Below are positions 5,825-21,791 of a stretch of 64,000 bases of DNA, piece after piece. The DNA comes from an uncultured Bacillota bacterium (lineage in GTDB: Bacteria > Bacillota > DTU025 > MWDF01): assembly GCA_963823655.1 (NCBI GenBank), contig CAWGMK010000007.1, forward strand, positions 192,001 through 256,000. Direction: 5' to 3'. The translations under genes were made by a program, and so were the position numbers. The notes under the pieces were generated by a model that had not been told where the DNA came from, ran no database searches, and saw nothing but the letters and a program-made list of their open reading frames with translations. Position 1 is the stretch's first letter, and each line of letters begins with the position of its first letter.

Positions 5825-7207
5825 ATGGGCAAGATTTGGGCTGGCAGGCTTGCAGGCGATCTGGATGAGAGGGCGGATGATTTCAACTCCTCGATTAGCT
5901 TTGACGGCCTGCTCTACAGGCACGACATAGAGGGCTCGATCGCGCATGCCAAGATGCTTGCCGCGAAGGGCATAATCGGCGAAGACGACGCAAAAGCCAT
6001 CACCGAGGCCCTTGCCGGCATACTCGAAGAGCTGGAAGACGGCAGGCTTGAGCTGGATATGGGCTGCGAGGACATCCATACATTCGTAGAGCAGGTGCTG
6101 ACTGAGCGCATCGGGGAAGCGGGCAAGAAGCTCCATACGGCAAGGAGCCGCAACGACCAGGTGGCGCTCGATATGCGCATGTATCTGAGGGATGAGGCCC
6201 AAGAGGTCATCGTTCTCATCAAAGACCTGCTGGGCGCAATCGTCGGCAAAGCGGAAGCACATAAGACGTCCATAATGCCGGGCTACACCCACCTGCAGCG
6301 TGCGCAGCCGATTACTTTCGGGCATCATCTTCTGGCCTATGCTATGATGCTGATTCGCGACATCGACAGGCTGGAGGACGCTATCGCCCGTATGAACGTT
6401 TCGCCAATAGGCTGCTGCGCCCTGGCGGGCACCACCTACGATATAGACCGCGATATGGAGGCGAAGCTGCTGGGCTTCGACGGCATCGCGCAAAACAGCT
6501 TGGACGGAGTGTCCGACAGGGACTTCTGCATAGAGCTTCAGGGCGCTTTCGCAATCATAATGATGCATCTCTCGCGCTTTGCGGAGGAGTTGATCCTCTG
6601 GTCATCTTTCGAGTTCAGATTCGTTGAATTGGACGCCGGCTATACGACGGGCTCATCCATCATGCCGCAGAAGAAGAACCCCGATGTGGCGGAGCTAGTC
6701 CGCGGCAAGACGGGCAGGGTCTATGGGAATCTGATGGCTACGCTTACTATGATGAAGGGGCTCCCCCTTGCCTATAACAAGGATATGCAGGAGGACAAGG
6801 AGGCAATAATCGACAGCCTGGGGACCGTGAAGAAAAGCCTTGGAGTCTTCGCCCCGATGATAGCCACGATGCATGTAAATACCGACAGCATGATGAAAGC
6901 GGCCCAGACTGGTTTCATGAATGCGACCGACCTTGCCGACTACCTGGTGAAAAAGGGAATGCCGTTTCGCAGCGCCTATAAGATAGCCGGGCAGGTCGTG
7001 GCTAAATGCATATCCGAGGACAAAATCCTCGAGACATTGGCCCTTGAGGAATACAAGCATTTCAGCGAGCTGTTCGATGCCGGCCTTTATGATGAGATCG
7101 ACCTTAAAGCATGCGTAGAGAAGCGTATATCGAAGGGCGGCACTTCAAAGCAATCGGTTGAGGCACAGATAGAATTCGTCAAGGAATTCCTGAAAGAACG
7201 AGTATAG
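5825..7207 (+). CDS. argH: Argininosuccinate lyase
   Basis: HTARSRNDQV, PGYTHLQRAQP, GSSIMPQKKNPD and AYNKDMQEDKE. Confidence 0.98.
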   Translation: MGKIWAGRLAGDLDERADDFNSSISFDGLLYRHDIEGSIAHAKMLAAKGIIGEDDAKAITEALAGILEELEDGRLELDMGCEDIHTFVEQVLTERIGEAGKKLHTARSRNDQVALDMRMYLRDEAQEVIVLIKDLLGAIVGKAEAHKTSIMPGYTHLQRAQPITFGHHLLAYAMMLIRDIDRLEDAIARMNVSPIGCCALAGTTYDIDRDMEAKLLGFDGIAQNSLDGVSDRDFCIELQGAFAIIMMHLSRFAEELILWSSFEFRFVELDAGYTTGSSIMPQKKNPDVAELVRGKTGRVYGNLMATLTMMKGLPLAYNKDMQEDKEAIIDSLGTVKKSLGVFAPMIATMHVNTDSMMKAAQTGFMNATDLADYLVKKGMPFRSAYKIAGQVVAKCISEDKILETLALEEYKHFSELFDAGLYDEIDLKACVEKRISKGGTSKQSVEAQIEFVKEFLKERV

Positions 7208-7445
7208 AAATTGGCCTGCTATCAGGGTTCTTCGGAGACATTCGGCTTCAGGCCGGCATTACTTGTTTAGTTCCGCCGATGTATTCGTGAATTCGCCAGA
7301 AATGATGAACAGGGGGCATGTAAGATATGCTCCCTGTTCGTTAATTCCTAGCTATATTTCCTAGAATCTCTGGTTCTATGGGCCTTAGACCAATCTGTCG
7401 ATAGAAATGCGCAATTACACCGGTTAGTAAGTCTTTGCTTCTACA

Positions 7446-8129
7446 TTACCTGGCCATTATATTATTGCCCTTGTAATCGACCTGGATGCTTTCTATCTCG
7501 ACGTAATTTTCAAACCCTTCGAAATCGGGTTCGACCAGGATGTTCGGGCAGAACCAGTCCGAATCATAATATGTCAGCTCAAGCTCCTGAATCAGAGTCG
7601 AATTGATGGTGATAGAAACGTCATTGCCATTCTTTACAATTACCATCGTGTTGGCCCCGGTTCGGTTCAGTCCCGGCACAAGGCCTGTGGAGTTCATATG
7701 AACCACCATGCTCGGAAAATCATCATGGTCTGTTATCGTAATCCTCTCTTCTGTTGACGGATCAGCTGCGATGTTGTCAAACTCGATCGCGAAGTGATTA
7801 CTGCCGGGGCCGAATCCCTTTTCGAATACGCCATCGGCAAGTATAAAAGAGAAGAATGCCGTATGGCTGCTGTCCAGGTTCAGATTGAATGCTATCGTGA
7901 CGGTGAAATCGCCGGAGAACATATTCGGACAGGCGATCACCATATCATGCAACCTGACGCCGCTATCGACGAAATCGTGCCCTACTCCCTCGAAGTACCA
8001 TTCATCAACCCCCTCGCCGAAGTCGCCCTCAAGCTCGAAGCTATAGACATACTCCAGCGTTTTGCAGCCGCATGTCAGCGCCAATGCCATTGCAAACATG
8101 ATTACCAGAACCATCCTGAACGATCTCAT
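7446..8129 (-). CDS. Acidic lipoprotein, paralogue of 8381-9034
   Basis: Start MRSFRM at 8129 after a G-rich RBS; lipobox-like LTCGC; aligns by eye with the neighbouring gene. Confidence 0.75.
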   Translation of the reverse strand: MRSFRMVLVIMFAMALALTCGCKTLEYVYSFELEGDFGEGVDEWYFEGVGHDFVDSGVRLHDMVIACPNMFSGDFTVTIAFNLNLDSSHTAFFSFILADGVFEKGFGPGSNHFAIEFDNIAADPSTEERITITDHDDFPSMVVHMNSTGLVPGLNRTGANTMVIVKNGNDVSITINSTLIQELELTYYDSDWFCPNILVEPDFEGFENYVEIESIQVDYKGNNIMAR

Positions 8130-8330
8130 CAGTCCACCCCCCCTTTTAGTGGATATGCTTTCCGCATTGCACGAATTACTCCTGCAGCAGTTGAAAAAAT
8201 GGATGCGCAGAAAAAAGAAGGGCAAATATGTCAGGTTATCCCGAAGGAAGCCAAGCTCGCTTTTTCGGCGTATATTGCGCAGAGGAAGACCCAAAAAGTA
8301 TCGCAAATCTAGACCAGAGACTTAAACAAA

Positions 8331-8357
8331 ATGGGGAGGGGTTAATGCCCTCCCCAT
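8331..8357 (-). terminator. Terminator between the two lipoprotein genes
   Basis: ATGGGGAGGG/CCCTCCCCAT hairpin with an adjacent T tract on the minus strand. Confidence 0.7.
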
Positions 8358-8380
8358 CTATGAGCTGTGTTTTGTTACAG

Positions 8381-9034
8381 CTAAATCGAATTGCCCTTCT
8401 CATACTTCACTTTGACGCTACTCAGATAGAAGCCGGCATCGGCAGTGAAGCCCGTGTGGCGCACATACAGGTAGGGCCTGTAGTATTCGGCCAGATTTCC
8501 GCCGTCGATGTTGAAATTCCCGGTGCTAAACCCATTGATCAGCACATTTATTGCGTTGCCAGTCCTTCTTATCGTGAACTCATTAACGCCATCCTCCATG
8601 CCGTCCGGGCCCCAGGACCTGTCATCCCAGATATTCGGATTTGCACCTTGCCCAACGCTGTGCCTTGCGGTAAGAAGGTCGAAGTACTCTGTAACAATGC
8701 CTGCATGGTGGCCTATGGAGCTGGCATTGCCGTCTACTATAAAGAATGTGAAGTCCACATAATCCGTATCCGTTACGGGAAGCTCTATTTCGAATTCGAA
8801 AGTGCATTCGAAATCGCCTTTGAACGAAATGGGAGCAGCCATGGCCATATCGTCGATTAGAAGGCCTTTATCCGAGAAGCTGTAATCCGAACCCTCCGTG
8901 CCCCAGATGCCTTCTTCATCAAGGAATGTTTGTTCATCGGCAAAATCATGGGAATAGGTAACTTTACAGCCTGTTAAAAGGGCAACCAGCATGATGATAA
9001 TGACCAGGATAGTGCCTTTTACTATTGCGCGCAT
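8381..9034 (-). CDS. Acidic lipoprotein, beta-sandwich-like
   Basis: Lipobox LLTGC; GGAGG RBS; beta-strand-rich sequence. Confidence 0.8.
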   Translation of the reverse strand: MRAIVKGTILVIIIMLVALLTGCKVTYSHDFADEQTFLDEEGIWGTEGSDYSFSDKGLLIDDMAMAAPISFKGDFECTFEFEIELPVTDTDYVDFTFFIVDGNASSIGHHAGIVTEYFDLLTARHSVGQGANPNIWDDRSWGPDGMEDGVNEFTIRRTGNAINVLINGFSTGNFNIDGGNLAEYYRPYLYVRHTGFTADAGFYLSSVKVKYEKGNSI

Positions 9035-9152
9035 AGTTTTTCCTCCTTCGAATTTCGCCTGAAGCCATACTTATACTTAGTCATATAGGCCCCTAATCCT
9101 GCATAGATGCAAGAAAATCCAAATCGTTCAGCTTGGATTCCAGTACCAGACA

Positions 9153-9893
9153 TCAGCCCTTCCTTGCGTACAGGCATAGCCTTCCTTTTTTGCCGCATGC
9201 ATCGATTACTTTCAGGAAACTTAGGACATTCAAAGCTGTTTGGGCATGCTTGCGGCTTATTGCAGCGCTTTTAGCGAAGTCGGCGCTGGTGAAAACCGAA
9301 GGCAGGTTCTCCGGCACAAGCGAGGAGTAGTCTTCGGGACCGCTTATTAAAAGCTCCTGCTCGAGGCCGAGAGGCAGGCGGTCGCATCTGCTGGAGCCCT
9401 TCTTCCTGTCATCGCTCCAGCCGTTCAGAAGCCTGTACTCCTCCATGTCGACCAGCATGATGAGCAAGGACAGGTTCGGGTGCGCAAGCAAGGGCTTGAT
9501 ACGATAAAGCTCGTAGAAAGCATCGTAGATGTTGCCGTGCTTCGGCGAGAGGCGAGGCTTCGAAACCTGCCCATCTGCAGGATCGATCCAAAGCAGCCAT
9601 TTTCTAGCGGGCAAAGGATAGACTATTGTTACCTTGTGTCCGGGCAGGAAGGCCCCAAGCTTGGCGCGGAGCTTATTGAACTGCCGTGTCTGGATTTCGA
9701 AGATGTGATCGCCGGAGAGTATATCGGCGAAAAAGGAGCCCAACTTTATCTCATGCTTTGCTAAATCCGGTTCCAAATAGAGCTTGATGGTGGCATGCAG
9801 GGCCTTTTCGCCGAGCGTGCCGATGCCGTTTGCGGCAGGGTTTCCTTCAATGAAAGCAAGGCGCGCAGATTCGAACCGGGCTTTATCCATCAT
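9153..9893 (-). CDS. Conserved hypothetical protein, PD-(D/E)XK nuclease-like
   Basis: EKALH...ADIL...IFEIQT pattern; possible HTH at the C-terminus. Confidence 0.6.
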   Translation of the reverse strand: MMDKARFESARLAFIEGNPAANGIGTLGEKALHATIKLYLEPDLAKHEIKLGSFFADILSGDHIFEIQTRQFNKLRAKLGAFLPGHKVTIVYPLPARKWLLWIDPADGQVSKPRLSPKHGNIYDAFYELYRIKPLLAHPNLSLLIMLVDMEEYRLLNGWSDDRKKGSSRCDRLPLGLEQELLISGPEDYSSLVPENLPSVFTSADFAKSAAISRKHAQTALNVLSFLKVIDACGKKGRLCLYARKG

Positions 9894-10162
9894 TAAGGTA
9901 CCTCTTCGTAAGACTTGGATAATGAAAACGACGCCTGGTTACATTGATAGCATACCGCTTGTCCGAATTAGATAGGAGAGGGCTTATCATTCGAAAGGCT
10001 TGATCTTTCGCATGGCTATGACATCAAATGAAATGATAAATGAGAGTGAAATCTGCTGTCTTCCTCACTATGGGAGCTCATCCAAAATTACTTTAAGAAA
10101 TGTCGGCTTTTAAGTTATCATCATTAGTATGACGGATAGGGCCACTCGTTGGAGGTGATTGT

Positions 10163-11011
10163 ATGCCTAACATTCAAGCCTCAGCGCAGATTCTCCGCGA
10201 ATATGAGAATCTGAAGCCGGTAGGAAAAAGGCTTGCCAATTACATCATGGATAACGAAAGGGAAGTCATACACCTTTCAATTACGGAGCTTGCCGAGAGG
10301 GCCGACGTGAGCGAGACTACAGTGATAAGATTCTGCAGGCAATTGGGGTATGAGGGCTATCAGGACTTTAAAATCAGGACAGCCCAGGGGATGGTACCGG
10401 AACTGAGCAATATACATGAGGATCTTTCCGAAGGCGACAGCCCGAGATCTGTATTGAAGAAGGTGTTCGCATCCTCCATAAGCGCGATCGAGGATACACT
10501 TCAAATCATTGACGAGGTGGCCTTCGACAAGGCGGCAACAGCCATCGCAAATGCAACGAGGATAGTATTTTCGGGCGAAGGCGGGTCGGGTATCATCGCG
10601 AAAGATGCGGAGCACAAATTCATAAGGCTCGGAATTCCGACATGCTCCAACCTGGATCCCTATATGAGGCTTGCAGCCGCGACTTTGATGAAACCGTCTG
10701 AAGTAATGTTAAGCATCTCACACAGCGGAAGCACTAAGAACATCGTTGAGGCATTATCGCTGGCAAAGAAAAGCGGAGCGACAACAATCTGTATCACGCA
10801 ATATCAAAAGTCACCAATCACAAAAGTCGCCGACATAGTGCTGACAGTATTCTCAAAAGAGGTAGAGTACAGAAGCGAAGCCATGGGCTCGAGAATTGCC
10901 CAGCTTTGTGTAATTGACAGCTTGTATGTAGAAGTTGCAAAGAGGCTTAGGGAGAAATCATGGGACACGATTAAAAAGGTCCGTGAAGCACAAGTTACTC
11001 TTAGGTATTAA
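10163..11011 (+). CDS. RpiR/MurR-family transcriptional regulator
   Basis: N-terminal HTH (SITELAERADVSETTVIRFCRQLGYEGY) plus SIS domain (ISHSGST, SRIAQL). Confidence 0.95.
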   Translation: MPNIQASAQILREYENLKPVGKRLANYIMDNEREVIHLSITELAERADVSETTVIRFCRQLGYEGYQDFKIRTAQGMVPELSNIHEDLSEGDSPRSVLKKVFASSISAIEDTLQIIDEVAFDKAATAIANATRIVFSGEGGSGIIAKDAEHKFIRLGIPTCSNLDPYMRLAAATLMKPSEVMLSISHSGSTKNIVEALSLAKKSGATTICITQYQKSPITKVADIVLTVFSKEVEYRSEAMGSRIAQLCVIDSLYVEVAKRLREKSWDTIKKVREAQVTLRY

Positions 11012-11125
11012 CGTCGCCTAATTAAATAACAGCTCATATCAATATCGCCCATCTATGCCAATGGAATATGGGTTGTCGGGTGAGCATCCCCTGGTTCTCA
11101 GCCCTGTGTCGAAATACTTTGTGAA

Positions 11126-11216
11126 GAAAAATATATTTCTTTTTTGGTAATTAGGAAGGAATATTTTATTTTTGCGTGTATACTTATATATAAGTTTCGA
11201 TAAATATTGATCGAAA
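11126..11216 (+). promoter_or_regulatory. AT-rich promoter/operator region of the tct-pepM operon
   Basis: Palindromes GAAAAATATATTTC (imperfect), ACTTATATATAAGT (11182-11195) and TTTCGAT..ATCGAAA (11195-11216). Confidence 0.5.
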
Positions 11217-11250
11217 TCATTCTCGATGAAAATAAGGGAGGTAGCAGACC

Positions 11251-12207
11251 ATGTTCAAGAGGTTGACAATCCTGAGCCTGGCGATCCTAATGGCAGTTGT
11301 ATTAGCAGGTTCGGCAATGAGCGCGTACCCGACGCAGCCCATAAACTACCTAATTGCCTTCAGTGCAGGCGGAGAATCAGACATCACCGCACGCATGCAG
11401 CAAAAGTACCTTGAGCAGGAGCTTGGCGTCCCTATCGTAATGACATATAAAACGGGCGGCGGCGGCGCAGTCTGCTGGGCAGAGCTTGTCCGCTCCAAGC
11501 CGGACGGATACATAATAGCAGGCGTTAACGAGCCGCATACCATGCTGCAGCCGATGCAGAGCAACAGCGGATATGAGACAAGCCAGATCCAGAGGGTAGC
11601 CCTCTTCCAGTTCACCCCCTGCGCATTGATTGTGCGCAAGGATAGCCCCTTCAAGACCCTTCAGGATCTGATCGATTTTGCGAAGAAGTACCCCGGCATG
11701 GTGACTGTAGGCGGCAGCGGCAGCTGGGCTTCGACCCACTTTACAACGATGTTGCTTGAGAAGGCGGCCGGAATAAAGCTCACATACATCCCGTTCGCAG
11801 GCTCTGGCGACACTAAGCCCGCAATCCTTGGCGGTCATGTGTCAGCGATAGTTGCACATCCAACGACCGCAGTAGGAATGAAGAATGACATAAGGATACT
11901 GGCAGTAGCTGCAGAGAAGCGCTCTGCGGTGTTCCCGGATGTTTCTACGTTCAAAGAGCTTGGCGTCCCGGGCGTTGTTGAAGGTTCCTACAGAGGCGTC
12001 GCAGTGCCTCCCGGCACCCCAAAGGATATTGTTAACAAGCTGGCAGCGGCCTTCAAGAAGGCCAATGAGGATCCGGCGTTCGTTAAGACCATGACAGATC
12101 TGGGCTTCGACCTGCTGTGGAAGGGCCCTGAGGAATATGAGAGCTGGATCAAGGAGAGAACGGTATATTACGCAGAGCTTCTCAAGACGCTCGGATATTC
12201 GAAATAG
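11251..12207 (+). CDS. tctC: Tripartite tricarboxylate transporter substrate-binding protein (TctC/Bug)
   Basis: Signal peptide; YPTQPI..FSAGGESD, GGGGAV, PDGY, YIPFAGSG and VPPGTPKDIV. Confidence 0.93.
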   Translation: MFKRLTILSLAILMAVVLAGSAMSAYPTQPINYLIAFSAGGESDITARMQQKYLEQELGVPIVMTYKTGGGGAVCWAELVRSKPDGYIIAGVNEPHTMLQPMQSNSGYETSQIQRVALFQFTPCALIVRKDSPFKTLQDLIDFAKKYPGMVTVGGSGSWASTHFTTMLLEKAAGIKLTYIPFAGSGDTKPAILGGHVSAIVAHPTTAVGMKNDIRILAVAAEKRSAVFPDVSTFKELGVPGVVEGSYRGVAVPPGTPKDIVNKLAAAFKKANEDPAFVKTMTDLGFDLLWKGPEEYESWIKERTVYYAELLKTLGYSK

Positions 12208-12293
12208 CTTCTGGACAAGCTTCGTAAGGGGGGCGAAAGCCCCCCATTTGAATGCCTCTATGAAGATTAACTAATGATTGCGAGGGACGCAAG

Positions 12294-13805
12294 ATGGTTC
12301 TTGAAGGCCTTCTGGGAATTTTGACTCCTCAGATACAACTTTATATCCTGCTGGCGACCATAGGAGGCATGATAGTCGGTGCACTGCCCGGGCTTACTGC
12401 GACAATGGCAGTTGCCGTTATGGTCCCGCTGACTTTCGGAATGGAGCCGGTTACGGGCCTTGCGGTCCTCGGTGCCATATACATGTCAGCAATCTATGGC
12501 GGATGCTTCTCGGCCATCCTCATAAACACCCCGGGCACGCCCGGTTCCATAGCAACAGCTTTTGACGGGTATCCGATGTGTGTGAAAGGTGAGGGAATGA
12601 GGGCCATCGTAGGCGCGACGGTCGGCTCCGTGATCGGCGGCGTCGTAAGCCTTGTAGCACTTTTCTTTCTGTCGCCCCCTCTTGCAGCCATTTCGTTAAA
12701 ATTCGGGCCTCCTGAATACTTCTGGCTTGCCATATTCGGACTTACCGTAATGGCCAGCATGGGGGGTGAGGGCTCTCTAGTAAAGACCTTCATGGCGGGA
12801 GGGCTCGGGCTTCTGATCAGCTGCATAGGGATGACCATAATGGGCGGGCAGCTGCGCTTCGGCTTCAACAACTACCACATGCAGGGAGGCATCGACCTCG
12901 TGTCTGCCATGATAGGCCTTTTCTGCATCCCTGAGGCGCTGAACTACATGAGCACCTTCGGCTCCATGTATAAAATTACCGAAGTAAAGAAGCCCAAGGG
13001 GGCAATCTGGGCGGCGATCAAGGAGACTCTGGCTTTGAGGGCCACCCTGGTGCGTTCTTCGCTTATTGGTTTAATCGTCGGCATCTTGCCGGGTGCAGGT
13101 GGCACTATCGCCAACATGATCGCATACAACGAAGCTAAGAAAGCCTCAAAAGATTCGGCTAAGTTCGGCACAGGAGTCCTTGAAGGAGTAGTGGCTCCTG
13201 AGACGGCGAACAACGCGACCGTTGGAGGAGGGTTAATTCCGACTCTTACCCTGGGTGTTCCGGGCACCACGGTAGCTGCGGTTATCTACGGAGCATTGCT
13301 TCTGCACGGCCTTAGGCCCGGTGCAGACCTTTTCACCTCGAACGGCAAGGTTGTCTGGGGGTTCATGTTCGCAATTCTCATATCTACGATAATGATGGGC
13401 GTTATTGGACTTCTCGTAGGGATACAGATGTATAGAGGAGTCTCAAAGGTGCCGACGAGGTTCATGGCACCGGCTATAGTCGCGTTATCAATCGTGGGAG
13501 CATACGCGGTAAGAAACAGCAGCGTGGATGTAATAGTTATGCTGGTGTTCGGACTTCTCGGGTACATCCTGAAAGAAATGGGCCTGGCCCCCGGCGCATT
13601 GGTTCTCGGCCTTATATTGGGCCCCATCGCAGAGGCAGGCTTCGTCAGGTCCAGCCTCATTGGGCAGGCCGCAGGCTATTTCAACATTTTCGTTAAAAGG
13701 CCTATCAGCCTTATACTGATAGCCCTTACTCTCCTGTCGCTTATCTGGCCAATAATCACAAATTACCTGTCCAAACGGGGTAAGGGGAGGGTTTCAGGTG
13801 CCTAA
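12294..13805 (+). CDS. tctA: Tripartite tricarboxylate transporter large permease
   Basis: GALPGL, ILINTPGTPGSIATAFDGYPM, GPPEYF, PETANNA and PTLTLGVPG. Confidence 0.95.
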   Translation: MVLEGLLGILTPQIQLYILLATIGGMIVGALPGLTATMAVAVMVPLTFGMEPVTGLAVLGAIYMSAIYGGCFSAILINTPGTPGSIATAFDGYPMCVKGEGMRAIVGATVGSVIGGVVSLVALFFLSPPLAAISLKFGPPEYFWLAIFGLTVMASMGGEGSLVKTFMAGGLGLLISCIGMTIMGGQLRFGFNNYHMQGGIDLVSAMIGLFCIPEALNYMSTFGSMYKITEVKKPKGAIWAAIKETLALRATLVRSSLIGLIVGILPGAGGTIANMIAYNEAKKASKDSAKFGTGVLEGVVAPETANNATVGGGLIPTLTLGVPGTTVAAVIYGALLLHGLRPGADLFTSNGKVVWGFMFAILISTIMMGVIGLLVGIQMYRGVSKVPTRFMAPAIVALSIVGAYAVRNSSVDVIVMLVFGLLGYILKEMGLAPGALVLGLILGPIAEAGFVRSSLIGQAAGYFNIFVKRPISLILIALTLLSLIWPIITNYLSKRGKGRVSGA

Positions 13806-14254
13806 GAAGAGAAATATCGACCTTATTGCCGCATTATTCGTGGGGGCCATCAGCCTTGTCTTCTGGTCCCAGCTGAAGGACATCAATTCTCCCATGGATG
13901 TTATATTTCCCAAAAGCGTCCTGATAGTAATGTTCGTTCTGTGCGGGATCCTGCTGATTAAGGCGTTCACTAAGCCGGATCTCAAAGAATTGTTCGCGAT
14001 AAAGAACAGGAACATGGTCGCGTTGGGGGCTATCTGCCTTGTTGTGTGGGTGGCGCTGCTCGGGAGTAACGGGTTTCATTTCAATAAGCGTGTTGGCATT
14101 CACGCTGCTCTCATGGATTATGCAGGACAAGGAGAAAAGGACTCTGAAATCGGCCCTTAACTCCGTGATTGTGGGCAGCATCCTAATCGGGCTTATCTAT
14201 CTGGTGTTCGTAAAATTGCTGCTTGTTCCGCTTCCAAAGGGCTTCCTCATTTAG
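13798..14254 (+). CDS. tctB: TctB small membrane subunit, frameshift near 14062
   Basis: Hydrophobic helices spread over two frames; ends with the typical FVKLLLVPLPKG. Confidence 0.8.
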
Positions 14255-14290
14255 GGATCGAAGCAATGAGCAGATTAGGGGGGTGTACCC

Positions 14291-15178
14291 TTGTTGCCTA
14301 GAAAAATTGGCTTCATAGGCTTCGGCGAGGCGGCTTCGGCATTTGCGAAAGCGCTATCCGAACATGGAGCAAACATTGAGGCCTTCGATATCCTTATAAA
14401 CGCTGAGGACGGCCTGAAGGTATTGAATCGCAGGAGCGATGGCGTAGATGTGAAGTTTCGCAAACTCGAGGATGTCATTAAGGACTCCGAGCTGATCATA
14501 TCCACAGTTACCACGGACGTTGCCCTGGCAGCTGCGAGAAGTTGCGCCGGGTTGCTGTCCTCATCAAAAGTATATTTCGACCTGAATTCCACTTCCCCGA
14601 ACGTAAAAATCGAGATATCCGAGGTCATAAGAAGCACCGGGGCGGGCTTTCTGGAAGGCGTAGTGCTTGGCGCAATAGGAGCCACCGGGTCTGCCACCAA
14701 AGTACTTCTCGGCGGCGATCTGGGCGAAGAGTATGCAATCAAGCTGAAGGAGCTGGGGCTAAACACCTCGTTTTTCAGCAGGGAGATAGGTAAGGCATCG
14801 ACTTTCAAGATGATAAGGAGCGTTTTCAGCAAGGGCGCAGAGGCACTGCTGCTAGAGATGCTCCTTGCCGGCAAGAAGGCCGGTCTTGAGGAGGAGCTGT
14901 GGAAGGACATAGTTGGGTTCATGGAATCCAAGCCGTTTGGCAAGATAGCCTCCAATTGGCTGCAAACCCATGCGGTAGCGTGTGAACGCAGATACTATGA
15001 GATGCTCCAGGTCTGCGGAACCATGGATGAGCTTGCAATCGAGCCTGTAATGGCAACTGCAACCGCAGAAGTGTTCAGGCATTCCGTTGAAGCAGGCCTG
15101 AAGAATAGTTTCCAGGATAAGGCCTCGAGCGTAAATGAGGTAATAGACGTGCTTTCCCAACTTGTGGGCAAAATGTAG
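14291..15178 (+). CDS. NAD(P)-dependent dehydrogenase, beta-hydroxyacid/6PGD-like (DUF1932 type)
   Basis: GFIGFGEAA Rossmann motif, [21 protein letters not shown] and RRYYEM. Confidence 0.85.
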
Positions 15179-15191
15179 GAGGCATCTTCAC

Positions 15192-16064
15192 ATGAACAAG
15201 ACAACGCAACTGAAAACACTGCTGAAATCCCCCCAGCTAGAATTCATACTAGAAGCTCACGATGGCATGAGTGCGAAGATCGTCCAGGAGGCGGGTTTCA
15301 AAGGCATTTGGGGCAGCGGGCTTACGATATCAGCGGCCATGGGAGTTCGCGACAGCAACGAAGCAAGCTGGACGCAAGTCCTTGAGGTTATGGAGTTCAT
15401 GAGCGATGCGGTAGATATCCCGATATTACTTGACGGCGACACCGGATATGGCAATTTCAACAACTTCCGCAGGCTCGTCAAGAAGCTAGAGCAAAGGGAT
15501 GTCGCTGGAGTATGCATAGAAGATAAGCTTTTCCCTAAGACGAATTCGTTTATAAATAGCACGAACCAGCCGCTTGCGGATATTCGTGAATTTGCCAACA
15601 AGATCAAAGCCGGAAAGGATACGCAGTCCGATCCCGATTTCTGTATTGTCGCCCGTATCGAATCGTTCATCGCCGGCTGGGGCCTTGAGGAGACTTTGAA
15701 GAGGGCCCACGCATATCACGAGGCAGGGGCCGATGCACTGCTCATTCACAGCAGGATATCCAAGCCCGATGAGATCCTGGCATTCATGAAAGAGTGGAAA
15801 GACACATGTCCTGTGGTCATAGTACCGACCATGTATTATGACACACCGGCAGAAGTGTTCGAGAAGGCCGGGATATCGCTCGTCATATGGGCGAATCACC
15901 TCATGAGAAGCAGCATGGCAAGCATGAAGGAAACGGCAGCGCAGATTGCCGCAGAGCGCTCCATAAGCACCGTAGAGAAGAAAGTGGTCTCCGTAAAGGA
16001 GATATTCCGCATGCAAAACGCGAAGGAGCTTGAAGAAGCCGAGAGGATCTATTTGCCCTCCTGA
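15192..16064 (+). CDS. pepM: Phosphoenolpyruvate phosphomutase
   Basis: Diagnostic [10 protein letters not shown] (EDK-X5-NS), plus [29 protein letters not shown] and VIWANH; no nucleotidyltransferase fusion. Confidence 0.95.
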
Positions 16065-16128
16065 GCAAACGGAAAACATTACTTGGTTTCGATTAATTTC
16101 GGGTATGACAGCTTTGGAGGCGTTTCCG

Positions 16129-17163
16129 ATGAATGCCAAAGTCATGGTTGAGGTAGATTGGCTAAGGAAGATCTCCCGCAAAATCCTTGAGATGCGCGGC
16201 GTAGACAAGGATTGCTCCGATGTTGTGACCGACATGCTCGTCGAGGCGGACCTGTGGGGGAGGAATTCCCATGGAACAATGCGCCTCGCTAAATGGGCAC
16301 CCGGGATCGAAGAGGGAACGATAGCCAAGCGCAATGAGATGAAGCTTATTAGAAGAAGCGGCTCCATCGAGTGGTTCGAGGGGAATATGACTCTTGGCCC
16401 CGTCTCCGCAATGACGGCGATTGAATCGTGCCTGAAAAGGGCAAAGGAATCCGGAGTGGCAATCTGCTGCGTATCCGGCGCGTCCCACATAGGAATGCTG
16501 GGCTATTACGCCCAGAAGGCAGCCCTCAAGGGGCAAATCGGGATAATAATGTGCAATACGGAGCCTGCCATGGCACCTTACGGAGGTTTAGATAAGGTGA
16601 TTGGCACAAATCCGATTGCGGTGGGGATACCTTCCGGCGTTAATCCGCCAATAGTGCTTGATATGGCAACTACAGTGCATGCAAGGGGAAGAGTCGTGGA
16701 AGCCCTCGAAGAGGGCGAAGAGTTGCCGGCAGGATGGGCTGAGGACGCCTTCGGTGAGCCGACAATAGATCCGGCCAAGGCGCTTGAAGGCTCACTGCTT
16801 CCGACAGGGGGCGTAAAAGGATACGCCCTGGCAATAATAGTGGACATACTCTCCGGCGCCCTCTCCGGAAGCTCGGTCGGCACAGGCGTGCTCGGCTCTC
16901 ACGATATGAGCAAGCCTTCCTCAAGAGGGGACTTCTACATGACAATAGACCCGGACCATACAGTAGGCCGTTCAGCGTTTGAGGCATCTGTTATGGACCT
17001 TGCGGGACAGATCAGGTCTTCAAGGACTAAAGAGGGAATGTCGATAATGCTGCCGGGCGACCCGGAAATGGACGAAAGGCAGAGAAGGCTTGAAAAGGGC
17101 ATACCGATGGTACAGTCGATAGTGCAGAAGCTCGAGATGCTGGCCAGCATGCAAGCAAAGTAG
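16129..17163 (+). CDS. Ldh_2-family 2-hydroxyacid dehydrogenase (ComC/AllD/DlgD superfamily)
   Basis: ADLWGRNSHG, SHIG, GTNPIA, LDMAT, KGYAL and LPGD; start 16129 after GGAGG. Confidence 0.92.
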   Translation: MNAKVMVEVDWLRKISRKILEMRGVDKDCSDVVTDMLVEADLWGRNSHGTMRLAKWAPGIEEGTIAKRNEMKLIRRSGSIEWFEGNMTLGPVSAMTAIESCLKRAKESGVAICCVSGASHIGMLGYYAQKAALKGQIGIIMCNTEPAMAPYGGLDKVIGTNPIAVGIPSGVNPPIVLDMATTVHARGRVVEALEEGEELPAGWAEDAFGEPTIDPAKALEGSLLPTGGVKGYALAIIVDILSGALSGSSVGTGVLGSHDMSKPSSRGDFYMTIDPDHTVGRSAFEASVMDLAGQIRSSRTKEGMSIMLPGDPEMDERQRRLEKGIPMVQSIVQKLEMLASMQAK

Positions 17164-17241
17164 TCCAAACATACATCCGTGTCCGGCTTGGCTGAGCAAC
17201 AGGCAAAATAGCAAATCCGTAAGACACATCCGAAATGACGG

Positions 17242-17291
17242 ACGATGACGGCTTTCTCAGTGGGGTTCAGACCTGAGAAGGCCGTCATCGT
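17242..17291. terminator. Hairpin between convergent genes, closing the pepM operon
   Basis: ACGATGACGGCTTTCTCAG...CTGAGAAGGCCGTCATCGT inverted repeat. Confidence 0.75.
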
Positions 17292-17339
17292 TTAAATCTC
17301 TTGTTTAGTTAAACCTGCTCGTAATCCGTATTATCAGGC

Positions 17340-18053
17340 TCATCGAATATGAAGCGAGAAGCGTTCCCCGAACAAAGCCAGGAAATCCTCCCGCGACTTA
17401 CTAAATACCCATTCTGCGCCTTCCAGCCTCTCACCCAGCGTGCATGACATAACATGCAGCAAGTGCCTGATATGGTACAGCCAGTCCTTAACACAGCTTT
17501 CCTCCAGCCGGCTGCGCATCTCGATTGTAAGCCGCTCGTTCTCCTCGGTGAGGTCTATGCCGTGCCAGGTGAATTCGCAATATCTCAGCTCGGCTCCGGA
17601 CAATTCCTGCTCCACTTCCAGGTTAAGATTCTCATCGAATCCCATCGCCAGGTGCCTGTCGATGTTTTCGCAGTAACAATGGCCCTCCTCAGTCAGGTTG
17701 TTCTCCTGCCAGGCATCGTGCCAGGGGCATGACAAAGTGCGGATTACCAATACGGGGGATCGTTGCACAATAACGGAACGCATGCTGCCCTGAGGGGCTC
17801 TCCATTCGCTGTAAGCCCTGTAAGCTGTCATATTTGTCTCATCGCCGTTTCTCAGGGCCCTTTTTCTCATGCGCCTTCCGCGCTGCAGCCCATATTCCTT
17901 GACCGCTGCAATTACCGCCAGCCTGCCCTCTTCCCCGTAGCGCTCGACGGCATTTCTCGTGATGATGCCGAACAAAGTCGCATGATGGCCCGGGAGCAGC
18001 TCTGCAGCCGCGCTTTTACACGCCTCGTCGCCGAACGATTTGACTTTGCCCAT
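17340..18053 (-). CDS. L-2-amino-thiazoline-4-carboxylate hydrolase-like (ATC_hydrolase) protein
   Basis: YGLQRGRRM, CPWHDAW, YCENID and CEF patterns. Confidence 0.75.
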   Translation of the reverse strand: MGKVKSFGDEACKSAAAELLPGHHATLFGIITRNAVERYGEEGRLAVIAAVKEYGLQRGRRMRKRALRNGDETNMTAYRAYSEWRAPQGSMRSVIVQRSPVLVIRTLSCPWHDAWQENNLTEEGHCYCENIDRHLAMGFDENLNLEVEQELSGAELRYCEFTWHGIDLTEENERLTIEMRSRLEESCVKDWLYHIRHLLHVMSCTLGERLEGAEWVFSKSREDFLALFGERFSLHIR

Positions 18054-18062
18054 TTCGCCTAC

Positions 18063-19223
18063 CTAGCCCCTATCTACATTAATCACTGTCCTGACGGAGG
18101 GATCCTTCTTGCGTATGGCCCTGCTTACCGCAGTAACAAGCTCATCTTCGCCCATCTTGTAAGAAAACGGGACAGACATATCGAAGATGATGTTGTTGTG
18201 AGTGATGCCTTTTACCACCCTGAAATCGTGGAATCTGAGCTCGGGATCTATCTCGGCTAAAGTTGCCGCAGCCAACTCGCGCATCTTGTTGACGAAAGGG
18301 TCATCTATCACTACCGGATCGAGGTGGATTACGAGATCGACCTGGCGCGCCTTCCTGATGTCCAGCTCGATGTTGTCTATTAGGTCATGGCTTTTTAGAA
18401 TGTCGACTTTTGCGTCGACTTCCACATGGACGGAGGCGAAAATGCGGTTCGGGCCGTAATCATGAACAAGCAAGTCGTGGGTGTTAATCACACCATCGTA
18501 CTTCTTTATGAAGTCGTCGATCTCCTCTATGGCATCTGCAGTCGGCGCTTTGCCGAGCATCCGGTCCATGGTCTCCCTCATAACCTTGTAGCCGGAGAAG
18601 ATGATAAGGCCGGACACGATCAGCCCCATGTAGCCGTCCAGCTGGAAATGGATTATGGGGCTCAACAGCATGGATACTAGTACCGCAGAAGTGGCTAGGA
18701 CATCAGAAAGGCTGTCGGTTGCCGTCGCCTGTATCATAGTCGAGCCTATCTGCCTGCCCAATGCGATGTTGAACCTATACAGCCAGAACTTAACGCCTAT
18801 GGAGAGCAGAAGAATGATGACGGCCAGGATGCTGAAGCCTATCTCATCTGGATCCATGATCTTCCCTACGGATGATTTGCCCAGCTCGAAGCCCACCAGA
18901 AGGATTATCACCGCAACTATGGAGGAGGCTATGTACTCGATTCTCGCATGCCCGAACGGGTGGTCCTTGTCTGCGGGCTTGGAGGAGAGCTTGAAGCTCA
19001 CCAGCGAGATTACTGAGGAGCCTGCGTCTGAAAGGTTGTTCATTGCATCGGCGGTGACAGAGATGCTCCCAAACAACGTCCCTGCCGTGAATTTCGCGGC
19101 AAATAGGGCGAGATTCAGGATTATACCCACTATGCTGCTCAGCTTCCCGTACTGGTTGCGGACGGCATCATCATGTATCCTGTCGGGGTTCTTCACGAAA
19201 AGGCTAACGAGATAGTTCTTCAA
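18063..19223 (-). CDS. Cation diffusion facilitator transporter
   Basis: ADAMNNLSD, PADKDHPFGHARIEY, HDLLVHDYG and IHLDP. Confidence 0.93.
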   Translation of the reverse strand: MKNYLVSLFVKNPDRIHDDAVRNQYGKLSSIVGIILNLALFAAKFTAGTLFGSISVTADAMNNLSDAGSSVISLVSFKLSSKPADKDHPFGHARIEYIASSIVAVIILLVGFELGKSSVGKIMDPDEIGFSILAVIILLLSIGVKFWLYRFNIALGRQIGSTMIQATATDSLSDVLATSAVLVSMLLSPIIHFQLDGYMGLIVSGLIIFSGYKVMRETMDRMLGKAPTADAIEEIDDFIKKYDGVINTHDLLVHDYGPNRIFASVHVEVDAKVDILKSHDLIDNIELDIRKARQVDLVIHLDPVVIDDPFVNKMRELAAATLAEIDPELRFHDFRVVKGITHNNIIFDMSVPFSYKMGEDELVTAVSRAIRKKDPSVRTVINVDRG

Positions 19224-19552
19224 GATGGTTCACCTTCGTCGTATTAGCGATCCAATGGGCCCATCGGCGGCCTCAAGCATCGCTTCTGTTTTTGCTTCAG
19301 TTTAGCACAATGCCGGCTGTATGGCTCAAAGCGCATCTTTCAGCTGCCGTCGGTGGGTTTCTGTGAACGACCGATTGTCGCCTGCCTTCGTATAAGACAT
19401 CGTGCGAAAAGTCCCGTGAGTCAGGTAATTCCGGCAACCGGCATTAGGCTATGTAAAATGGGGCCAAGGACATATACTTTGATTGTCAATGCACAATAGG
19501 CGAAGGGGAGAACCCGCCGTCAATGCGAGCATCAACTACCAAGGAGGATAAT

Positions 19553-20324
19553 ATGTACGCACCGAGTTTCAGGCTTGACGGGAAGACAGCAGTAGTGACA
19601 GGGGCAGGGCGCGGAATAGGCAAAGCCATAGCATTGGGCTTGGCTGAGGCCGGCGCCGACATAGTCCTTATGGCAAGGACCGGAAAAGAGATGGACGAGG
19701 TCGCAGGCCTAGATCGGGGAAATCGGCAGAAGGGCACTGGTAGTCCAGGCAGACCTCACAAACAAGGAAGCCATAGAAAAGGCTTTCGATGAAGCCCTGG
19801 GGCTGTCCGGCAGGATAGACATACTTGTCAACAACGCCGGCGTGAATCCGAGGACGCCTACCTTCGAAGTCGATCAGGAATCGATGGACAAACACTTGAA
19901 ACTAAATCTGGAAGGAGCCTTCTTCTGCTCCCAGGCCGCAGGAAGGATAATGAGCAGGCAAGGGGGCGGCAGGATAATCAGCATTGCGTCCGTTGCTGCT
20001 CAAGTAGCAACCAAGGCCGGGATCATCTATTCGATGACCAAGGCCGCCGTAGTGCAGATGACGAAGACGCTCGCTGTAGAATGGGGCAAGTATGGCATTA
20101 ATGTGAACGCGATCGGCCCGTGGTATATAAGAACGAGCATGACGGAGGAGAAGCTGAAGGACAAGGCGCTTGTGGAGCAGATACTTTCAAGGACGGTGAT
20201 ACAAAGGATCTCCGATCCGGAAGATCTTGTAGGCACTGCGATATTCCTATCCTCAGACGCTTCAAGCTATATAACAGGCCAGACCATTTTTGTGGACGGC
20301 GGCCTTACTATCTACGGTTTCTAA
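19553..20324 (+). CDS. SDR oxidoreductase (gluconate 5-dehydrogenase/KduD-like), frameshift near 19705
   Basis: TGAGRGIG, NNAG, YSMTK and VNAIGP across two frames. Confidence 0.88.
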
Positions 20325-20339
20325 GGATCAGCCTGCCCG

Positions 20340-20373
20340 GGAGCCGAAGGCCAAAAACCTTCGGCTCCTTTTA
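20340..20373 (+). terminator. Terminator after the SDR gene
   Basis: GGAGCCGAAGG/CCTTCGGCTCC hairpin followed by a T run. Confidence 0.85.
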
Positions 20374-20707
20374 TTTGCCCAAAAAGAAAGATGACGGCAA
20401 GGGCGATCGATTTTTACTCTCGGTGGATATGGAACCGATATCACAATATACCTAAATTTGCCAATGATGAAACGCTAGCTAGATTAGGCAATCAAATAAT
20501 CATATGCAATCTAGCTGTATGTTACACGCATATCACTGGCAATATAAATATCTCTCTGAAACAGAGTATATTCATAGAAATTCCCGTCAATGTAAGAGCG
20601 AATATCAATATAGCAGCAGCTAAATACGCTTATAGTCGAAATAAATAAATATTTGCACTTTGCAGGAGGAATCTCAACTTGGGCGGATAATAAATATATA
20701 ATATATA

Positions 20708-20721
20708 TGAAACCCTTACCA
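20708..20721 (+). promoter_or_regulatory. LacI-type operator candidate
   Basis: TGAAACCCTTACCA resembles LacI/cre-type sites and lies upstream of the LacI gene. Confidence 0.45.
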
Positions 20722-20780
20722 CATTTCCGAGTGCTCATGAATACTGAAAGCGGAAATCTGGTACATGGAGGTGCGCAGGA

Positions 20781-21791
20781 TTGACGACGATCTATGAGAT
20801 TGCTAAGAAGGTCGACGCTTCTCCATCAACGGTTTCACGTGCGCTTTCAGGCAACGGCTATGTAAGCAAGGAGATGAAAGAGAAGATCCTTGCCGTGGCC
20901 GAATCCCTATACTACAGGCCGAATGCGCTCGCAAGGGCGCTAGTCACAAAGAAGAGCCAGACGATTGCCTTCGTTGTAGCCGACATCGGCAACCCCTTCT
21001 TCCCCGCAATAGCCAGGGGAGTGGAGGATGTCGCAAGCACCAAAAGCTACAATGTCATCCTTTGCAATACGGATTCCAACAGGGTCAAGGCCGACGAGTA
21101 CATCAAGGTGCTAAGCAGCAGGCAGACGGACGGAGTCATATTCTGTACCGCAAGCGTTAACGACAGGCATGTGAAGGAAGTTATTGGAAGCGGCATCCCG
21201 GTCGTATTAGGATACCCGAGCAAGACCATCAAATGCGACACCGTCTCGTGCGACAACCTCCATGGGGGCATGATCGCGACAGAGCACCTTATAGGCCTCG
21301 GGCATACAACGATCGGGATAATCAGCGCCCTTGTGAAGCGCGTGACGGGCGGCGACAGGCTAAGAGGGTATAAGAGGGCACTCGTTAAACATTCGCTCCG
21401 GGTGAGGGAGGACTTGATCGTCGAGGGCGACTACAGCATGGAGAGCGGCTACGAGAACGCCAAGAGGCTTCTAAACCTCATCGGCCGCCCGACTGCGATC
21501 TTCGCGACCAATGACCTTATGGCGATAGGCGCGATGAACGCGATAGAGGAGGCAGGGCTCAAGGTCCCTGATGACATTGCAGTCGTCGGATACGATGACA
21601 TCCTTATGGCATCGATCGTAAAGCCCAGGCTGACCACGGTGGCCCAGCCTAAATACGAGATAGGGCAGCTTGCGTGCAAGGCCATCCTGGACAGGATGGA
21701 GGCCCCGGACAGGCCCTGGGAGCATACGGTCCTCAAGCCGAAGCTTATAGTCAGAAGCTCCAGCGTAGTGATGGATACCAACAGGGCGTAA
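20781..21791 (+). CDS. LacI-family transcriptional regulator
   Basis: [40 protein letters not shown] and LTTVAQP. Confidence 0.96.

Follow-up and report, generated by a model that had tools for sequence, protein, structure and literature searches.

Does a phosphoenolpyruvate (PEP) mutase that is encoded next to an importer make a carbon–phosphorus (C–P) bond or break one? The question is raised by a seven-gene operon of an uncultured Bacillota bacterium (assembly GCA_963823655.1, contig CAWGMK010000007.1), in which the mutase gene pepM stands between two dehydrogenase genes and downstream of a tripartite tricarboxylate transporter (TTT). We analyzed a stretch of 64,000 nt of this contig, hereafter the window (C7:192001-256000), and compared the operon with related loci in species-representative genomes and metagenome contigs. 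We lean towards reading the operon as a system for the inducible uptake and catabolism of a three-carbon phosphono-carboxylate, most likely 3-phosphonolactate (2-hydroxy-3-phosphonopropanoate), in which the mutase would work towards PEP.

As the preliminary description of this DNA had it, the operon consists of seven co-oriented open reading frames (ORFs) on the + strand at 10163-17163, in the order rpiR-tctC-tctA-tctB-DH-pepM-Ldh_2 and with families assigned by Pfam and NCBIfam. DH is our shorthand for the NAD_binding_2 + DUF1932 dehydrogenase at 14291-15178. The features are as follows:

10163-11011, + strand: rpiR/murR-type regulator, 282 aa (Pfam HTH_6 71.4 bits, SIS 60.9 bits)
11012-11250, + strand: AT-rich, palindrome-containing spacer between rpiR and tctC that may hold an internal promoter or operator (palindrome and promoter-like site)
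11251-12207, + strand: tctC, secreted solute-binding protein of the TTT, 318 aa (Pfam TctC 179 bits)
12294-13805, + strand: tctA, large membrane subunit, 503 aa (Pfam TctA 456 bits)
13798-14160, + strand: tctB, small membrane subunit, 120 aa (weak Pfam TctB match, 20.8 bits against a cut-off of 29.1)
14291-15178, + strand: DH, NAD(P) dehydrogenase, 295 aa, proposed phosphonolactate dehydrogenase (Pfam NAD_binding_2 + DUF1932)
15192-16064 (ORF open from TTG 15162), + strand: pepM, PEP mutase, 290 aa (TIGR02320)
16129-17163 (ORF open from TTG 16030), + strand: Ldh_2 dehydrogenase, 344 aa, proposed second, opposite-enantiomer phosphonolactate dehydrogenase (Pfam Ldh_2 345.9 bits)
17242-17291, + strand: strong hairpin closing the operon (19-nt arms, -36.9 kcal/mol)

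The likely starts of pepM (ATG 15192, immediately past the DH stop) and Ldh_2 (ATG 16129) are both preceded by GGAGG.

The product of pepM scored 396.6 bits on TIGR02320, the equivalog model of PEP mutase (cut-off 319.55; 396.5 bits in the genome search), and 238 bits on TIGR02321, the model of the phosphonopyruvate hydrolase PalA (cut-off 374.4). It aligned with the crystallized mussel PEP mutase 1m1b over 288 residues with 432 bits, and the models of methylisocitrate lyase and carboxy-PEP mutase scored far lower than TIGR02320. The EDK-x5-NS active-site motif, which the preliminary description had reported as complete, is present in the translation and aligns with the motif of the mussel enzyme. 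Its Asn is catalytically essential in PEP mutase; the hydrolase 2dua has Thr at this position and reads MEDKTFPKDTSL. With TIGR02320 above its cut-off, TIGR02321 below and Asn in the motif, the enzyme does not class as a hydrolase, an identity that would have spoken against the catabolic scheme from the outset. The window PepM is an authentic PEP mutase, with catalysis between PEP and phosphonopyruvate predicted.

None of the seven ORFs matched a phosphonopyruvate decarboxylase, an aminotransferase, a phosphonomethylmalate synthase, a nucleotidyltransferase or a glycan or other tailoring gene in Pfam or NCBIfam, which bears out an earlier claim, and no thiamine pyrophosphate enzyme was found among them either. 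The operon has no Pfam family of the VlpB-type 2-Hacid_dh, the PalB-type aminotransferase or the FrbC-type synthase, while DH and Ldh_2 could in principle reduce phosphonopyruvate. Tailoring or attachment genes (nucleotidyltransferases, glycosyl- or lipid-transferases) were also absent among the ORFs scanned in window 7446-21791. A check of the host genome (2.31 Mb in 13 contigs, 97.1% complete and 3.8% contaminated), proposed in the preliminary description, found no phosphonopyruvate decarboxylase gene ppd (TIGR03297; best score 20.6 bits against a cut-off of 312.5), no PhnJ, no phosphonatase and no PhnW reaching the cut-off (best 122.4 against 400.8 bits).

In the pathway that we propose, the secreted TctC would bind the substrate and TctAB would import it. 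Using NAD(P)+, DH would oxidize phosphonolactate to 3-phosphonopyruvate, Ldh_2 would oxidize the other enantiomer to the same product, and the mutase would then isomerize phosphonopyruvate to PEP, the direction favored by equilibrium. The C–P bond would be turned into a high-energy enol-phosphate ester, and PEP would enter glycolysis, where pyruvate kinase can make ATP, by a route independent of C–P lyase, hydrolase and oxygen. The RpiR regulator would respond to the substrate or to an intermediate. Of this scheme, we infer the substrate, the direction of flux, the division of the enantiomers between the dehydrogenases and the effector of the regulator.

The direction can be considered from the energetics of the two reactions. 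Reduction of a 2-oxoacid by NADH is favorable by roughly 25 kJ/mol, as estimated from standard values. The equilibrium between PEP and phosphonopyruvate lies more than 500-fold towards PEP (preprint 10.64898/2026.01.15.699783 and PMC3266647, in the portions of both that were available), a preference that had been claimed for this mutase from the start. The two-step system is therefore near-reversible, with its direction set by supply and drain. Flux would go to PEP where phosphonolactate is supplied by an importer and PEP is drained by glycolysis, and in reverse where tailoring enzymes drain phosphonolactate.

The full operon proved to be rare. Our PepM scan of species-representative genomes gave 46 loci, and the other six operon proteins were also encoded at one of them only (L007). 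The TctC scan, with 80 loci kept, exceeded 33% identity in two only, L053 (on the same contig as L007) and L054, and a metagenome scan returned five relatives, among them a full copy of the operon (L133). L007 belongs to a genome of the same genus as the host (G001, the same genome as G025), which was the one genome with PepM among the six other same-genus genomes searched. With the operon restricted to three places (the window, one same-genus genome and one metagenome contig) and PepM to one of six same-genus genomes, it is therefore a rare and patchy accessory trait, as expected of an accessory catabolic island.

A smaller unit recurred far more widely. The orders RpiR-TctCAB-PepM'-DH (L135), TctCAB-PepM'-DH (L136) and LysR-PepM'-DH-TctC (L137) combine DH with a second mutase-like lineage, PepM', that is ~40% identical to the window PepM. 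PepM' stayed under the cut-off of both models, with ~290 bits for the mutase and ~301 bits for the hydrolase; it keeps the mutase-type motif IEDKKFPKNNSL with Asn, where hydrolase 2dua has Thr, and among solved structures it is closest to the Streptomyces PEP mutase 5unc. A PepM' scan added eight more loci, several of them with DH adjoining PepM'. Using the DH alignment as the query, we found 145 relatives and kept 80 loci from species genomes, 22 of which contained a PepM-type gene: PepM' lay directly upstream of DH in 18, DH directly upstream of PepM in two, and one or two genes intervened in the remaining two. Together with four metagenome contigs and the window, this gave 27 PepM + DH loci spanning 11 phyla by their record labels, at least one of them in a cultured strain, Adhaeribacter aerolatus NBRC 106133 (L212). 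In one further metagenome-assembled genome (MAG), the pair was split over two contig ends (L149, L054). It is the PepM + DH pair that forms the conserved core, and not the operon in its entirety. The synteny of pepM with tctABC, Ldh_2 and rpiR suggested for follow-up was recovered in full at three places, and Ldh_2 turned out to be accessory (5 of the 27 loci), the conserved partner of PepM being the DUF1932 enzyme. A 614-aa "PepM-DH fusion" ORF in L147 proved to be a GC-rich PepM gene read through out of frame, and was discarded.

On the PepM tree, whose groups we defined by genomic context, the window, L133 and L007 form a clade (SH-aLRT 99) that nests with seven PepMs of other context (support 94), and the PepM' loci form a separate clade. 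As the PepM' clade stands apart from that of the window, the importer + DH context needs two changes on this tree. The PepM-linked enzymes were clustered on the DH tree, needing 10 changes where the shuffles averaged 23.8 (0 of 500 shuffles as low), and the window DH falls in a starred clade of 13 rows, all of them PepM-linked with either PepM or PepM' as the partner. Since this clade takes in partners of both kinds, it is DH that stays constant in the pair, while one mutase lineage has been swapped for the other.

The neighbors of the 27 loci were annotated in part, by annotating representatives and transferring the result to clustered neighbors. Importers that depend on a binding protein were present at 14 loci in total: TTT components at eight (the window, L154, L133, L135, L136, L137, L213 and, with the membrane parts only, L160), ATP-binding cassette (ABC) importers with a binding protein at four (L228, L198, L157, L164) and TAXI-TRAP at two (L216, L222). 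The TAXI-TRAP binding protein of L216 passed the Pfam Phosphonate-bd cut-off (36.1 against 27 bits). Regulators were of the RpiR type at four loci (the window, L154, L133, L135) and of the LysR type at five (L137, L198, L213, L162, L232), and the five Ldh_2 loci were spread across three transporter settings. Single loci added a TonB-dependent receptor (L227), two sulfatase-like hydrolases (L212), a Cache-domain chemoreceptor (L162) and an M20 peptidase (L146). Phosphoesterase-type genes occurred at two loci, as glycerophosphodiester phosphodiesterase (GDPD), HAD and metallophosphoesterase genes in L157 and as two GDPD-cluster genes with an iPGM-like metalloenzyme in L164.

No nucleotidyltransferase, glycosyltransferase, ppd, aminotransferase or tailoring gene was seen among the annotated neighbors of the 27 loci. 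At the level of genomes, ppd exceeded the cut-off in one of the 22 further hosts (G068), or in two of 24 when the genome of the window (none) and G001 are counted. These absences are provisional because all but a few of the genomes are MAGs. The importers, substrate-type regulators, outer-membrane receptor, chemoreceptor and phosphoesterases, together with the lack of tailoring genes, fit flux to PEP.

The regions L157:919-7933 and L164:30-7894 each place the PepM'-DH pair within an operon with a TOBE-domain ABC ATPase, a binding protein and one or more GDPDs; these operons look like phosphorus scavenging systems.

The two dehydrogenases of the window operon differ in how much their relatives reveal. 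For DH, the closest solved structures (1i36, 4ezb, 3qsg) are all of uncharacterized proteins, no characterized DUF1932 member turned up in the search, where the protein atlas gives generic oxidoreductase names, and none of 864 homologous proteins at E <= 1e-20 bore an informative name. Phosphonolactate is a beta-hydroxy acid relative to its phosphonate group and therefore suits an enzyme of the beta-hydroxyacid-dehydrogenase fold such as DH. The best NCBIfam model for Ldh_2 is L-sulfolactate dehydrogenase (NF040650; 302.7 bits, below the cut-off of 500), and among solved structures Ldh_2 is closest to the L-sulfolactate dehydrogenase 2x06 (236.8 bits); sulfopyruvate is the sulfonate analog of phosphonopyruvate. 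The analogy suggests that DH and Ldh_2 may each serve one enantiomer of phosphonolactate. A two-dehydrogenase "racemase" in sulfolactate degradation was reportedly the subject of a paper by Denger and Cook in 2010. Many Pseudomonadota loci among L165-L231 (e.g. L200, L201) carry DUF1932 dehydrogenases that form large clades, are 44-49% identical to the window DH and have no PepM nearby.

The importer belongs to the TTT systems by Pfam for TctC and TctA and by position and conservation for TctB; the TctB call for 13798-14160, with its score under the cut-off, is supported by the location downstream of tctA and by homologs at the same position in L007, L133 and L135. TctC has an N terminus resembling a signal peptide, and its best solved relative is the aspartate-binding BugD (144 bits). 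It falls in a distinct subfamily of eight PepM-linked TctCs with the group-specific residues R115, R129, K189, H203 and R248. Its residues 36-44, AFSAGGESD, were counted as a match to the carboxylate pincer motif of the family, P-F-x-A-G-G-x-x-D (given in the accessible part of PMC5812351), the first residue being Ala and not Pro. Mapping the basic residues onto the contact residues of TphC by a constant offset was too uncertain, and we did not use it.

In the regulator, HTH_6 covers residues 7-75 and SIS residues 128-256. The protein is 75% identical in L007 and falls below the cut-off of every NCBIfam MurR/RpiR model. The SIS domain of RpiR regulators typically binds phosphorylated ligands. 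The spacer between rpiR and tctC contains a palindrome at 11195-11216 and a promoter-like site at 11109-11137, although such sites were no more numerous than in shuffled sequence. We rejected the palindrome as a conserved operator, since L007, L133 and L135 do not share it.

Since the pair of PepM and dehydrogenase is reversible, sequence alone cannot fix its direction, and a number of observations weigh against catabolism of phosphonolactate. The closest relatives of the window PepM (L008-L014, 72-75% identical) sit in a biosynthetic-looking context, and the window clade nests among them. They come from MAGs labelled mostly Anaerolineales and in one case Bacteroidota, in which pepM directly follows the gene of a D-isomer 2-hydroxyacid dehydrogenase and is surrounded by Wzy_C, methyltransferase, polysaccharide deacetylase, glycosyltransferase-like, sulfotransferase and ATP-grasp-like genes (e.g. 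L012:322-12306); ppd was absent from the five genomes of this type tested beyond G002. Their dehydrogenase is of the 2-Hacid_dh Pfam family, which was used to define VlpB-type phosphonolactate formation (PMC8942020, in the part available). These loci look like producers of phosphonolactate-derived surface structures and would show a near-identical mutase working biosynthetically with a dehydrogenase partner. They cut both ways, being also a plausible source of the substrate and a plausible origin of pepM. PepM with a 2-oxoacid reductase is described as the accepted biosynthetic pull to phosphonolactate (PMC8942020; 10.64898/2026.01.15.699783; accessible portions), and free phosphonolactate has so far been isolated from Streptomyces culture medium only, according to the part of the 2022 inventory of phosphonates that was available. 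A major facilitator superfamily (MFS) protein, of ambiguous transport direction, was the sole carrier at 6 of the 27 loci, an EamA-type carrier follows DH in L135, and no transporter was seen at seven loci, several of which are short contigs with partly annotated neighbors. G001, in which the same operon holds the only PepM, has ppd (399.4 bits) on another contig amid unrelated genes, and G068 has ppd above the cut-off. Finally, 58 of the 80 loci with DH homologs lack PepM, mostly in Pseudomonadota and many next to TctC genes of the generic Bug type, so that a role with phosphonolactate is not a specific property of the DH family.

Much of this would suit an operon in which PepM makes phosphonopyruvate and DH and/or Ldh_2 reduce it to phosphonolactate, with the transporters serving another purpose or re-capturing the product. 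Dehydrogenase-driven formation of phosphonolactate is an accepted branch point of biosynthesis (PMC8942020 and the 2026 preprint 10.64898/2026.01.15.699783, as far as available), the window PepM clade nests within PepMs that stand beside 2-Hacid_dh and glycan-type genes, the MFS and EamA carriers of some loci are potential exporters, and ppd occurs in G001 and G068. We nevertheless consider biosynthesis unlikely in view of the uptake systems of three kinds at 14 of the 27 loci, the substrate-responsive types of regulator and the receptor, chemoreceptor and phosphoesterases among the neighbors, and of the lack of any gene for tailoring, activation or attachment among those annotated; the DH family also differs from the VlpB-type 2-Hacid_dh. 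The mutase could also run towards PEP on a different import, be it phosphonopyruvate, phosphonoalanine (an aspartate analog that a dehydrogenase would deaminate oxidatively) or a larger conjugate that is first hydrolyzed. The relationship of TctC to the aspartate-binding BugD is compatible with this, as is the inclusion of imine reductases (1wtj) in the Ldh_2 family, and the phosphoesterase-type genes of L157 and L164, the sulfatase-like hydrolases of L212 and the M20 peptidase of L146 hint at conjugates. Such a substrate seems rather improbable, given that Pfam and NCBIfam detected no aminotransferase or amino-acid dehydrogenase family in the operon, that free phosphonopyruvate needs no dehydrogenase and yet DH is the constant partner of PepM, and that minimal loci consist of transporter, PepM and DH only.

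It is very improbable that the operon handles a hydroxy acid without phosphorus, such as sulfolactate or malate, and that the PepM-type enzyme acts as a lyase, decarboxylase or hydrolase. The similarity of Ldh_2 to sulfolactate dehydrogenase, the import of sulfolactate by a TTT system of the same gene order (PMC5812351, in its available part) and the scores of PepM' below both the mutase and the hydrolase cut-offs point that way. They are opposed by the window PepM, which lies above the mutase cut-off and matches the mussel enzyme over its full length, by the Asn of EDK-x5-NS in both lineages where the hydrolase has Thr, and by the far lower scores of the methylisocitrate-lyase and carboxy-PEP-mutase models. 

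Catabolism through a reversed PepM, as originally put forward, is thus partly supported. The in silico tests made of it all came out in its favor: the mutase is authentic, the host lacks ppd and the other phosphonate pathways searched for, and the pair recurs beside three unrelated kinds of importer and RpiR or LysR regulators. The original account is to be amended as to the conserved partner of PepM, the rarity of the full operon and the ppd of the same-genus genome, and its direction and substrate are inferred.

The ORF of the orphan ppd in G001 (L139:8943-10091, C9) is far from the only pepM of that genome and has as its neighbors subtilase, outer-membrane-like, beta-eliminating lyase and aldehyde:ferredoxin oxidoreductase genes.

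The operon shares parts with several known systems. As in the sulfolactate degradation of Chromohalobacter salexigens and Roseovarius nubinhibens with SlcHFG, tctB follows tctA in the TTT (PMC5812351, available part), the Ldh_2 is closest to L-sulfolactate dehydrogenase, and there are two dehydrogenases from separate families, potentially one for each enantiomer of a 2-hydroxy-3-X-propanoate. The differences are a terminal enzyme that is a PEP mutase and not a sulfo-lyase or decarboxylase, an Ldh_2 that falls short of the sulfolactate-dehydrogenase cut-off (302.7 against 500), and a TctC whose relationship to known Bug proteins is no more than generic. The substrate-induced and phosphate-independent degradation of phosphonoalanine by PalB and PalA likewise leads from a C3 phosphonate over phosphonopyruvate to C–P cleavage by a member of the PEP-mutase superfamily, as proposed here (2023 review of phosphonate degradation, in part); entry there is by a transaminase and here by a dehydrogenase, and PalA yields pyruvate and phosphate where the mutase would yield PEP. 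The early branch of valinophos-type biosynthesis, in which PepM and VlpB form phosphonolactate and whose clusters hold the closest PepM relatives, comprises the same two reactions. The direction proposed for the operon is the opposite, its dehydrogenases are DUF1932 and Ldh_2 and not 2-Hacid_dh, and it has importers and catabolic-type regulators instead of tailoring genes.

PEP phosphomutase activity was reportedly noted in a phosphonoalanine-mineralizing Burkholderia cepacia by Ternan, McGrath and Quinn in 1998, an earlier suggestion of a role of the mutase in phosphonate breakdown. The C–P cleavage there has been attributed to the hydrolase PalA (2023 review, in part), and no cluster of the present kind was involved. 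As summarized in the available text of the same review, phosphonates are degraded by C–P lyase, by three substrate-specific hydrolases or by an oxidative route, and the terms "PEP mutase" and "phosphomutase" are absent from its main text. We found no PepM-based catabolic pathway in the open-access literature, with supplements and subscription papers outside the search; the papers on phosphonolactate were biosynthetic or chemical. A cluster of this type is not described in the available main text of the 2022 inventory, whose supplementary cluster tables (PMC8942020) lay outside the search. The operon is placed within the PEP-mutase and TTT families, outside the PalA and sulfolactate-dehydrogenase equivalogs, and is predicted not to be a canonical biosynthetic cluster. 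It would put familiar enzymes, and a reaction already described, to a new physiological use.

The broader claim, that the PepM + DUF1932 DH pair forms a widespread catabolic module (27 loci, 11 phyla labels) and a further mechanistic class of biological C–P cleavage, is in our judgment evenly poised. If true, the C–P bond would be isomerized into the enol-phosphate of PEP and not hydrolyzed, oxidized or cleaved by a radical mechanism. Even without oxygen, the phosphonate would then provide the cell with carbon, with phosphorus and with one ATP from substrate-level phosphorylation, which suits anaerobes. Producers of phosphonolactate-type surface structures would be linked to consumers, pepM would mark consumers too and not just phosphonate producers in genome and metagenome surveys, and counts of pepM would have to be reread. 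The hypothesis is directly testable, as the enzymes are small and soluble and at least one cultured carrier, A. aerolatus, exists.

Among the other loci of the PepM scan, those of Nitrospirales (L015-L042, L048; e.g. L040:7977-9611) encode PepM as a 544-aa fusion with an NTP_transf_3 nucleotidyltransferase domain that does not adjoin ppd. Nitrospirales genomes G009, G012, G014 and G016 contain split ppd-like genes below the cut-off, hundreds of kilobases from the gene of the PepM fusion.

A second pepM in the host genome, on contig C11, was rejected as an independent locus. Over its whole 10,285 bases, C11 copies window 7168-17356 with 86% DNA identity, so that the operon is duplicated together with the 3 kb that precede it. 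Frameshifts and stops break up its proteins, whose readable pieces are mostly 88-100% identical to those of the window. C11 is probably an uncorrected (noisy) or strain-variant copy that adds to the contamination figure of the bin.

The hairpin said to close the operon is real. It lies between convergent genes, its two 19-nt arms (17242-17260 and 17273-17291) are 95% complementary, and its fold of -36.9 kcal/mol has z = -5.58, with equally good folds in 0 of 200 shuffles. A simple terminator scan, whose rule is limited to loops of 3-8 nt, did not list it; the loop here has 12 nt.

Upstream of the operon, three minus-strand ORFs without a Pfam match (7446-8306, 8381-9034 and 9153-9893; 286, 217 and 246 aa) are all included in the C11 copy, and the first two are paralogous (cluster n12). 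Downstream, the ORF at 19842-20324 (160 aa) matches only positions 87-236 of the short-chain dehydrogenase (SDR) profile and follows an 89-aa ORF at 19523-19792; the two are possibly a frameshifted or truncated SDR gene. For window 11251-17163, no RNA run was listed as containing the sequence, and nine DNA runs contained small shares (0.05-0.10) of its sampled words.

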